A stretch of 32,000 bases of DNA from contig PHFB01000002.1 in assembly GCA_002841355.1 (NCBI GenBank), positions 275,414-307,413 of the forward strand. Reading direction: 5' to 3'. The notes beneath the pieces are model-generated. The model saw only the letters and a list, made by a program, of their open reading frames with translations, was not told the origin of the DNA and ran no database searches. A program made the position numbers and the translations under genes. The stretch comes from Actinobacteria bacterium HGW-Actinobacteria-1. GTDB lineage: Bacteria; Actinomycetota; Coriobacteriia; Anaerosomatales; Anaerosomataceae. This document shows positions 17,798 to 19,121 of the stretch, piece by piece. Within the stretch, counting starts at the first letter, position 1. Every line of letters begins with the position of its first letter.

Positions 17798-18136
17798 TCA
17801 AGCAGGAGCGGCGGGTTCGCCTTCGGCCATCGGCGCCGTGCCGCAGCAGCCGCCGCTTCCGTCACCACATGAGGGCTCGGTGCCGCGTAGCCAGCCGTTG
17901 ATGATCGCCTCGGCGCATCCCACGCCGGGCTTGAGGGAGATCGCGCCGAACGCGCAATTCTTGGCGCATGCGCCGCACTCCATGCACGCGTCCAGGTCTG
18001 CTACGCGCACGCGGCGGTCGTCCGTCTCGGTGAAGACGGCGTGCGGGCATACCGAGAGGCACACCCTGCACCCGGTGCACTTCTCGGCGTTGAGCTTGAG
18101 GCTCGCTACGCCGCTGAGATAGCGGAATCCGCGCAT
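17798..18136 (-). CDS. hgcB: Mercury methylation ferredoxin HgcB
   Basis: MRGFRYLSGVASLKLNAEKCTGCRVCLSVCPHAVF...DACMECGACAKNCAFGAISLKPGVGCAEAIING contains two CX2CX2CX3C motifs. The conserved GVGCA Cys and a C-terminal CC pair (GGCCG) are also present. AGGAG overlaps the hgcA stop. Confidence 0.9.
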   Translation of the reverse strand: MRGFRYLSGVASLKLNAEKCTGCRVCLSVCPHAVFTETDDRRVRVADLDACMECGACAKNCAFGAISLKPGVGCAEAIINGWLRGTEPSCGDGSGGCCGTAPMAEGEPAAPA

Positions 18137-18143
18137 GACGCTC

Positions 18144-19121
18144 CTAGCCGAGGAAGTACTGCACGATCCATAGTACGCCTGCGATGACAGCAGCTGCAGC
18201 TTGCGCTGGCAGCGCCAGGCGCAACTCCTTCTCCACGCCCGAGGGCGAGGTGAACGGGGTTGCTCCCGTGAAGTTCAAGCCAACGAACGACGCGACGCTT
18301 GCCGCAAGCAGCGTGCCAGCAGCAACGCCGAGCGGTTCCGAGCCAAGCGCCAGCGACGCCGCTGCGCCCGCCACCACGCCCGCGAGCGCGCCCTTGAGCG
18401 AGAATCCGCGACCGGGAAGCCAGGGCAGCAGTGCAGGGGTGAGGACACCGCCTGCCAGAACGCCCACGATGTACGCGACGAGGGGCTGGCATGCGGCGGC
18501 GAGGGAGCCGTGACCGAGCAGCCACCCGGCGGCGATGAGTCCAACCGGGATAAGGAGCTTCCATCCTCTCAGCGTGCCCACCAGTTCGACGGGTGTGAGC
18601 ACTATCCGTTCGGCGAAGGTGAAGGTGACGACGCGCATCTCGGGCGTCGTCTTCATGCCTGCAGCCACGAATGCCCGGATGTCGCGCGATCTGATCGGGC
18701 CGAAGATGACCCTGTAGTCGCCAAGCTGTCGCGCCTCGTGTGCCGACACGCCTGTGGCTCCGAGCTGGGGAACGATGAGCGTCCTGTGGTTCACGTGTCC
18801 GGACAGATTGCTCTTCGCCGCTCGGACGATGAGTTCCTTCGTGCTGAAGGTCCCCTTGCCGGCCGCGCACCACACGTTCACGCCGTTCGTGTCGAGCACG
18901 AGCAGCCACGAATCGATGCCGAGAAGATCGCGGCGCACGAGGTCGAACGTCATGCGGTAGTTCGCGGTGACGAATACGGGTGACGCAGGCGTCGGCTCAC
19001 CCACTCGGTACAACCCGGGCTCTACCACCGCACGTTCGCGACCGATATCCCAGCGAAGCGCCCAACGGGCAATCGTGTCACGCCAGGTAAGCGTAGACGA
19101 CGCTTGGCGTACGTCAGCCAT
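18144..19121 (-). CDS. hgcA: Mercury methylation corrinoid protein HgcA
   Basis: The diagnostic cap-helix motif GVNVWCAAGKGTF is present (Cys codon 18867-18869). Surrounding sequence PGLYRVGEPTPASPVFVTANYRMTFD...LVLDT fits the family, and the C-terminal half has about 5 TM helices. Confidence 0.93.
   Translation of the reverse strand: MADVRQASSTLTWRDTIARWALRWDIGRERAVVEPGLYRVGEPTPASPVFVTANYRMTFDLVRRDLLGIDSWLLVLDTNGVNVWCAAGKGTFSTKELIVRAAKSNLSGHVNHRTLIVPQLGATGVSAHEARQLGDYRVIFGPIRSRDIRAFVAAGMKTTPEMRVVTFTFAERIVLTPVELVGTLRGWKLLIPVGLIAAGWLLGHGSLAAACQPLVAYIVGVLAGGVLTPALLPWLPGRGFSLKGALAGVVAGAAASLALGSEPLGVAAGTLLAASVASFVGLNFTGATPFTSPSGVEKELRLALPAQAAAAVIAGVLWIVQYFLG

Follow-up and report, generated by a model that had tools for sequence, protein, structure and literature searches.

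Microbial methylmercury formation has a known genetic determinant, the gene pair hgcAB. We analysed a 32-kb stretch of contig PHFB01000002.1 from Actinobacteria bacterium HGW-Actinobacteria-1 (the window), in which an intact hgcA-hgcB pair, that of an uncultured high-GC actinobacterium, lies in a block with the order tetR-hgcA-hgcB, a 138-nt spacer, and hgcC-arsM-MBL, where MBL stands for a metallo-beta-lactamase-fold hydrolase gene. Coordinates are positions in the window, and all genes of the block are on the (-) strand. We consider it highly probable that the two genes lie on the chromosome of an uncultured high-GC member of the Actinomycetota related to Coriobacteriia-like metagenome-assembled genomes (MAGs), and that their products are genuine orthologues of the mercury methyltransferase that HgcA and HgcB form together.

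HgcA matched the curated equivalog hidden Markov model (HMM) of its family, NF040863 HgcA_corrinoid, with 394.4 bits (cutoff 275; E = 3.8e-118), residues 4–323 covering model positions 1–324 of 325. HgcB likewise passed its own equivalog model, NF040864 HgcB_ferredoxin (123 bits, cutoff 99; E = 3.4e-36). In contrast, the paralogue models failed: with the fused HgcAB-like model NF043039 (cutoff 285) the two separate open reading frames of the window scored 180 bits (HgcA) and 54 bits, and the model for the gamma subunit of the corrinoid iron-sulfur protein (CFeSP), NF003195 (AcsC/CdhE), gave HgcA 74 bits against a cutoff of 306 and aligned through its C-terminal 125 residues only. Pfam finds a single domain in HgcA, CdhD (PF03599, residues 31–127). 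Because Pfam recognises just this generic domain, an 87%-identical protein is named 'acetyl-CoA synthase subunit gamma' in one database; related proteins carry the NCBI name 'mercury methylation corrinoid protein HgcA [Actinomycetota bacterium]'.

Proteins of the HgcA family share a cap-helix motif, N(V/I)WCA(A/G)GK, whose strictly conserved cysteine is Cys93 in Pseudodesulfovibrio mercurii ND132. The original prediction, made from the letters of the window, had placed NVWCAAGKG and its cysteine codon in the hgcA product, and the placement is exact to the base. This region aligned column by column with those of 53 further HgcAs, each of which reads NVWC, so that the failure to align that had been named as a refutation did not occur; the whole motif is identical in 49 of the 53, and Gly80 and Asn82 to Gly88 are invariant across the 54-sequence alignment. 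In CFeSP (2h9a, 4djd) a threonine aligns with Cys85. The AlphaFold2 model of HgcA, built with 54 homologues (pLDDT 90.9, pTM 0.83), has a beta-alpha, Rossmann-like corrinoid domain with Cys85 in helix 83–89, and its match to the CFeSP corrinoid domain agrees with the corrinoid-binding-type N-terminal domain that had been predicted. Activity of ND132 HgcA requires a C-terminal transmembrane (TM) domain of five helices. About five had been predicted here, and five hydrophobic segments in a Kyte-Doolittle profile (~187–323) and five helices assigned by DSSP in the model, all at high pLDDT (186–202, 207–230, 240–258, 263–285 and 293–324), bear this out. The top Foldseek match of the model is 9a0b_A, a model of ND132 HgcA (46% identity, 327 aligned columns, E 1.5e-19), followed by the CFeSP large subunits 2h9a and 4djd, which match in the corrinoid domain only (root-mean-square deviation 1.4–1.6 Å over 124 columns). 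A search of PDB sequences with HgcA returned no HgcA entry, only CFeSP large subunits (residues 30–156).

The hgcB gene begins 7 nt downstream of hgcA, as had been predicted, because the hgcA stop codon (TAG, 18146..18144) ends at 18144 and the hgcB ATG, preceded by an AGGAG Shine-Dalgarno sequence, is at 18136. When one genome of each GTDB species was searched, 56 related loci (here numbered L001 and so on) were recovered; 53 of them have hgcB after hgcA, and in the remaining three either the contig or the match stops short of where hgcB would begin. Pfam detects ferredoxin motifs in HgcB, and both of the predicted CX2CX2CX3C motifs are present, CTGCRVCLSVC at residues 20–30 and CMECGACAKNC at 51–61. 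HgcB proteins have a conserved cysteine about 12 residues after the second motif (Cys73 in ND132), and the predicted GVGCA cysteine is Cys74, in GVGCAE; the full set of cysteines is 20/23/26/30, 51/54/57/61, 74, 90 and 97/98. Two further hallmarks named in the original prediction stood only in part. The protein does begin MRGFRYL, but among 53 HgcBs this is a loose x-R/K-Y-L/I pattern and not diagnostic, and the predicted cysteine pair is found at 97–98, but it is not C-terminal, since 14 residues (GTAPMAEGEPAAPA) come after it. A tail of 14–32 residues after the pair occurs in this clade only. In a separate set of loci, mostly from Desulfobacterales (L008, L013, L014, L016, L017, L021, L022, L026, L027, L032 and L040), a stop codon interrupts the HgcB frame where Cys73 would be (GVG*A); if the codon is TGA, these stops are consistent with the selenocysteine-containing HgcB proposed by Haft.

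A preprint (Haft, 2022) describes an N-terminal Cys-Cys or Cys-Sec (PCUGP; Sec or U, selenocysteine) extension in HgcA of ND132, of G. sulfurreducens and of 18 other homologues. The in-frame sequence upstream of the window hgcA reads ...SKSGG*PRWPWQATARPDM; it contains no cysteine, overlaps tetR, and has Gly-Gly ahead of its TGA. Because this TGA lacks a PCU context and lies inside tetR, we rejected a selenoprotein or otherwise extended start, and the 325-residue form of HgcA stands. The extension is also absent in L001, L002, L003 and L028 and is visible in many other loci. As the NCBIfam HgcA model starts at residue 4 of the window protein, the extension is no defining feature of HgcA. Among the other loci, the frame upstream of hgcA opens after a stop with 'GP...' or has CC-P motifs in the Geobacter-like L025, L031 and L036 and in L005, L010, L015, L023, L029 and L054; these frames fit the proposed PCUGP/CC extension, which the actinobacterial clade lacks.

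The closest relatives of the window HgcA are those of L001 ('Coriobacteriaceae bacterium') and L028 ('Actinobacteria bacterium 1MN72D_65_13'), both 87% identical, then L003 (UBA2286, 75%) and L002 (HGW-Actinobacteria-6, 74%), the remaining loci reaching at most ~50%. In a neighbour-joining tree of the corrinoid-binding domain (127 columns, rooted with two CFeSP sequences), the deep branches of which are unreliable, the window HgcA groups tightly with these four, inside a non-fused HgcA clade that also holds Geobacter, Desulfobacterales, Firmicutes and others; the placement among paralogues that would have told against the prediction was therefore not seen. All four genes hgcA, hgcB, hgcC and arsM are under purifying selection: against L001, L028 and L002, the ratio of nonsynonymous to synonymous substitution rates (dN/dS) is 0.13–0.16 for hgcA, and it is 0.09–0.14 for hgcB, 0.03 for hgcC and 0.06–0.10 for arsM. 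The very same HgcA sequence recurs, with matching gene calls, on no fewer than 10 contigs drawn from several public metagenome assemblies.

The named relatives are MAGs labelled 'Actinobacteria/Actinomycetota bacterium' and 'Coriobacteriaceae/Coriobacteriia bacterium'. The host is likewise from an uncultured Actinomycetota lineage, because the best matches of RsgA, the ribosome-biogenesis GTPase of the window, lie on the same MAG contigs as the hgcA relatives (78–79%) and the next best are 'Coriobacteriia bacterium' proteins (~60%). This agreement, the uniform GC content of the whole window (~65%), and the presence of the same cluster on contigs of up to 816 kb in related MAGs all point to a chromosomal hgcAB locus that looks vertically kept within the lineage. 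A horizontal island or mobile element was rejected, given that GC shows no anomaly, that there is no tRNA, and that synteny extends along the long contigs of the relatives; no integrase- or transposase-like domains were seen among the neighbouring genes. The features of the locus are collected in Table 1.

Table 1. Genes, protein regions and candidate regulatory elements of the hgcAB locus, in window coordinates.
Feature	Position	Strand	Description
hgcA, membrane-anchored corrinoid protein	18144..19121	(-)	325 aa; NF040863 HgcA_corrinoid; Pfam CdhD; AlphaFold2 model
Cap-helix motif NVWCAAGKG, HgcA residues 82-90	18852..18878	(-)	Cys85 codon TGC at 18869..18867
HgcA transmembrane domain, five helices, residues 186-324	18150..18566	(-)	Hydropathy and DSSP of the AlphaFold2 model
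hgcB, 2x[4Fe-4S] ferredoxin	17798..18136	(-)	112 aa; NF040864 HgcB_ferredoxin
TetR-family regulator gene	19123..19719	(-)	Pfam TetR_N + TetR_C_24
hgcC, HgcAB-associated AbrB/SpoVT-like protein	17393..17659	(-)	88 aa; NF040962 near_HgcAB/HgcC, 94.7 bits (cutoff 70)
arsM, arsenite methyltransferase dependent on S-adenosylmethionine (SAM)	16550..17383	(-)	277 aa; NF008823, 329 bits (cutoff 263)
MBL-fold hydrolase gene, travels with the cluster	15660..16517	(-)	Pfam Lactamase_B
Candidate tetR-hgcAB promoter/operator	19744..19784	(-)	11-nt perfect inverted repeat 19751-19784, then TAGAAT 19749-19744
hgcB-hgcC spacer, 138 nt	17660..17797	(-)	Promoter-like TTGCCA-17-TATTCT (17729->17701), operator-like repeats

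The original prediction missed hgcC, the third family-specific gene of the locus, which lies 138 nt downstream of hgcB. Its homologues have a Cys-rich N-terminus and an invariant ICC(I/L)T motif, and they adjoin hgcAB in L001, L028, L002, L048 and L060; a literature search under the name 'HgcC' returned unrelated acronyms only. L060 (3524-5270) comes from a different lineage and has the HgcC homologue P0166 immediately ahead of hgcA, the two genes overlapping by 4 nt, with hgcB next; where hgcC sits with respect to hgcAB thus differs from lineage to lineage. ArsM matches Pfam Methyltransf_31 (E 7e-38), and its translation holds CC pairs and the stretches GLGCGNP, SNCVINL and VACLGG, cysteine stretches that we take to be equivalent to the As(III) ligands of CmArsM. 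The series hgcA-hgcB-hgcC-arsM is common to the window, L001 and L028; L002 shares all four genes, but there an MBL gene separates hgcC from hgcB. The MBL gene of the window is 78–81% identical to this gene of L002 and to the one that follows hgcB in L003; L001 and L028 lack it.

The tetR stop codon lies 1 nt ahead of the hgcA ATG (junction TGA-T-ATG). This same tetR gene also precedes hgcA in L002 and L003 (79–81% identity), and the yhgE-tetR pair is found upstream only in the window and these two loci, whereas L001 has no TetR and L028 a different one (TetR_C_1 type). The idea of TetR as a dedicated hgcAB regulator is weakened by the absence of yhgE-tetR from L001, the closest relative, and by the different TetR of L028. 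Since yhgE-tetR is confined to the window, L002 and L003, this TetR may primarily be a yhgE-associated regulator behind which hgcAB came to sit. The yhgE-tetR pair is an indel (window 19123-22118 against L001 5377-6000), and in L001 the TfoX_N gene (window 22009-22374) abuts hgcA.

Both intergenic spacers contain candidate regulatory elements. In the yhgE-tetR spacer, upstream of tetR, the inverted repeat has the arms CGGAGCGCCGG-N12-CCGGCGCTCCG; this spacer is 89% identical to that of L002 and L003, though hgcA of the window and of L002 differ by a dS of 1.2, and in L003 a change in one arm of the repeat is compensated on the other. The repeat and the TAGAAT that follows would be either a TetR operator and promoter or a terminator of yhgE. 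The hgcB-hgcC spacer is 85% identical to that of L001 and L028, with the invariant blocks GCCGCGGTCGCGGC, and the palindrome GCCGCG-GT-CGCGGC comes immediately behind the hgcB stop. Over the -10 region of this spacer lie two TCAG-N6-CTGA elements that L001 and L028 share and that may serve HgcC or some other regulator as an operator. That the spacers might hold a riboswitch or some other known RNA was rejected: no Rfam family matched at its gathering score anywhere in the window, spacers included, and the fold of the hgcB-hgcC spacer has a z-score of just -2.5. Because candidate elements occur in both spacers, two transcription units are suggested, in which hgcAB is probably transcribed together with the upstream tetR from a promoter overlapped by the conserved palindrome, and hgcC-arsM-MBL is probably a second unit with its own promoter.

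Further from hgcAB, the window and L001 differ on the arsM side of the cluster. An ABC transporter (ATPase 12153-12935, FtsX permease 12929-15322), a 64-aa membrane protein (15343-15537) and the MBL gene occupy window positions 12153-16517 and are absent from the corresponding interval of L001 (8560-8866), where arsM is directly followed by rsgA, a flavin reductase gene and apgM; the window thus has an insertion of the transporter and MBL genes there. On the other side, the window encodes (22394-23896, (-) strand) a protein of 500 aa that is secreted or anchored and has an F5/8 type C 'NADase translocation' domain; L001 and L028 also keep this gene ahead of their clusters. Elsewhere in the window, msrA (2045-2740, (+) strand) matches Pfam's 'selenoprotein MsrA helical domain', and its frame contains a TGA at 2153-2155, exactly where the catalytic cysteine would be (TATFSLG-U-FWGPDARFG). 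The product is a candidate selenocysteine MsrA, and from this codon the host appears to use selenocysteine.

We propose a mechanism for the window proteins that is modelled on the characterised enzyme of P. mercurii ND132. HgcA would be anchored in the membrane by its five helices, with a corrinoid held in the N-terminal domain and the thiolate of cap-helix Cys85 as the lower axial ligand of cobalt. The two [4Fe-4S] clusters of HgcB would then reduce the cobalt to Co(I), which would take the methyl group of SAM to give methyl-Co(III). Finally, the methyl group would pass to Hg(II), which the Cys97/98 thiols in the flexible tail of HgcB would present with help from Cys74, and methylmercury would be released.

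Two other readings of the pair have to be weighed against this one. The CdhD domain as sole Pfam match of HgcA, and the name 'acetyl-CoA synthase subunit gamma' given to its 87%-identical relative, would suit a non-methylating relative, that is, a CFeSP/CdhD-type subunit of the acetyl-CoA pathway or a member of the fused 'HgcAB-like' clade, of which a protein failed to methylate in Pyrococcus furiosus. However, given that HgcA passes the HgcA model and falls far short of both paralogue cutoffs, that the tree places it among non-fused HgcAs, that CFeSP has a threonine at the Cys85 site and no TM domain, that hgcA and hgcB are separate and not fused, and that no genes for carbon monoxide dehydrogenase/acetyl-CoA synthase lie nearby, we rejected a paralogue of either kind and regard this reading as extremely improbable. 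A genuine HgcAB orthologue might also have a physiological substrate other than mercury, forming with HgcC and ArsM a SAM-driven module for arsenic or another soft metal(loid), with Hg methylation incidental, weak or absent in vivo. Such a role would accord with the hgcC and arsM genes that adjoin hgcAB in the window, L001, L028 and L002, with the strong purifying selection, with the SAM that HgcAB and ArsM would both use, with the arsenic link of hgcAB already raised in the literature, and with a clade that has no N-terminal Cys/Sec extension and a non-terminal CC pair. Yet all the residues that mutagenesis ties to Hg methylation are present, orthologues of similar identity to ND132 come from lineages of confirmed methylators (Geobacter and relatives in the Desulfobacterales, 42–50% identical to the window protein), and no HgcAB is known to act on any other substrate; we consider a non-mercury substrate unlikely.

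Several observations do weigh against a mercury methyltransferase of the known kind. No PCUGP or CC extension can be read in the frame upstream of hgcA. The CC pair of HgcB is followed by its 14-residue tail, whereas the other HgcBs compared mostly end at most one residue after their last CC, and the second Fe-S motif is followed by alanine and not proline, alanine occurring there in 5 of 53 HgcBs. Neither corrinoid synthesis or uptake genes nor a cobalamin riboswitch were found in the 32-kb window, a span too small to say much, and the deep branches of the tree carry the uncertainty given above. Lastly, we found no report of an experimentally confirmed Hg-methylating actinobacterium, the term used in the literature being 'putative methylators'. 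Even so, true HgcA and HgcB orthologues, probably able to methylate mercury, are the reading that we favour. As a more speculative extension, rather doubtful at present, hgcAB of this clade could be one half of a conserved island for SAM-dependent methylation of soft metal(loid)s (hgcA-hgcB-hgcC-arsM with or without MBL), in which the Cys-rich, extremely conserved HgcC would act as a thiol-based metal sensor or metallochaperone that replaces the missing Cys/Sec extension of HgcA, and the promoter would be controlled by TetR and not ArsR. If so, the native role of HgcAB would lie in metal(loid) detoxification or antibiosis, and HgcC would gain a function.

The original prediction held the position of hgcAB next to arsM in a high-GC lineage to be notable. 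The arsM gene is where it was said to be, but the novelty did not hold up, since hgcAB in Actinobacteria was first reported in 2020 and arsenic-gene neighbourhoods of hgcAB came in that same publication: McDaniel et al., 2020 (PMC7438021) reported 17 hgcA+ actinobacterial MAGs (9 Coriobacteriia/OPB41, 4 Thermoleophilia, 3 UBA1414 and 1 RBG-13-55-18) and hgcAB neighbourhoods with arsM, arsR, arsC and acr3. A literature search for hgcA together with Anaerosomatales found nothing. The window pair is a clear member of a known family and its novelty is low; it adds little to what has been published, where the family, the lineage and the neighbouring arsenic genes can all be found. Its modest added value lies in the short HgcA without a Cys/Sec extension, the extended HgcB tail, the tetR coupling and the hgcC-arsM unit, clade features that could guide experiments on the delivery of Hg(II) to the enzyme and on gene regulation. 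Since apparently no actinobacterial methylator has been confirmed experimentally, this complete and well-conserved locus, in which the gene boundaries are clear, can serve as a template for heterologous tests. More broadly, hgcAB serves worldwide as a marker for predicting where neurotoxic methylmercury forms.

HgcA and HgcB of P. mercurii (Desulfovibrio desulfuricans) ND132, against which the window pair is best compared, were reportedly described by Parks et al. in 2013. Like the ND132 pair, the window has two adjacent genes, an HgcA with a corrinoid domain, five TM helices and an NVWCAAGK cap helix bearing the Co-ligating cysteine, and an HgcB with two CX2CX2CX3C motifs, an equivalent of Cys73 (Cys74) and a CC pair in the tail; a full-length comparison of the window HgcA with the ND132 model gives 46% identity. 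For ND132 HgcAB, the only pair known to be characterised biochemically, SAM as methyl donor and Co-thiolate ligation have been described (Zheng et al., 2024, PMC11588087). The integrative model of ND132 HgcA (Cooper et al., 2020, PMC7305189) is the entry 9a0b, and the same work lists the HgcB cysteines as 20/23/26/30, 50/53/56/60, 73 and 94/95, of which C73 and C94/95 are required according to mutagenesis. The window HgcB repeats this pattern one for one with an offset of +1. In contrast to ND132, the window HgcA has no PCUGP/CC extension, 14 residues follow the CC pair of HgcB, and the co-oriented upstream regulator is of the TetR family and not ArsR-like, arsR being the gene in this place in many methylators.

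The actinobacterial MAGs L001, L028, L002 and L003 resemble the window in their HgcA (74–87% identical), which is equally short, and in the extended HgcB tail; L001, L028 and L002 carry hgcC and arsM on the downstream side, and L002 and L003 carry yhgE-tetR on the upstream side. They differ in that L001 is without yhgE-tetR, L028 has another TetR, and the MBL gene is placed differently or absent. The CFeSP large subunit (AcsC/CdhE; 2h9a, 4djd) has a homologous corrinoid domain, to which HgcA residues 30–156 are ~30% identical, but it has a threonine for Cys85, no TM domain, and an N-terminal [4Fe-4S] domain. The closest counterpart described for hgcC is the AbrB/PrlF/MazE-like 'TA gene' next to hgcA (Zhang et al., 2023, PMC10349881), which is of the same small SpoVT/AbrB-type family as HgcC (NF040962) and is found only next to hgcAB. 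That gene lies immediately upstream of hgcA in Methanomicrobia, as it does in L060, whereas the window hgcC is downstream of hgcB, where, unlike its counterpart in Methanomicrobia, it stands behind a promoter-like site of its own and heads the hgcC-arsM unit.

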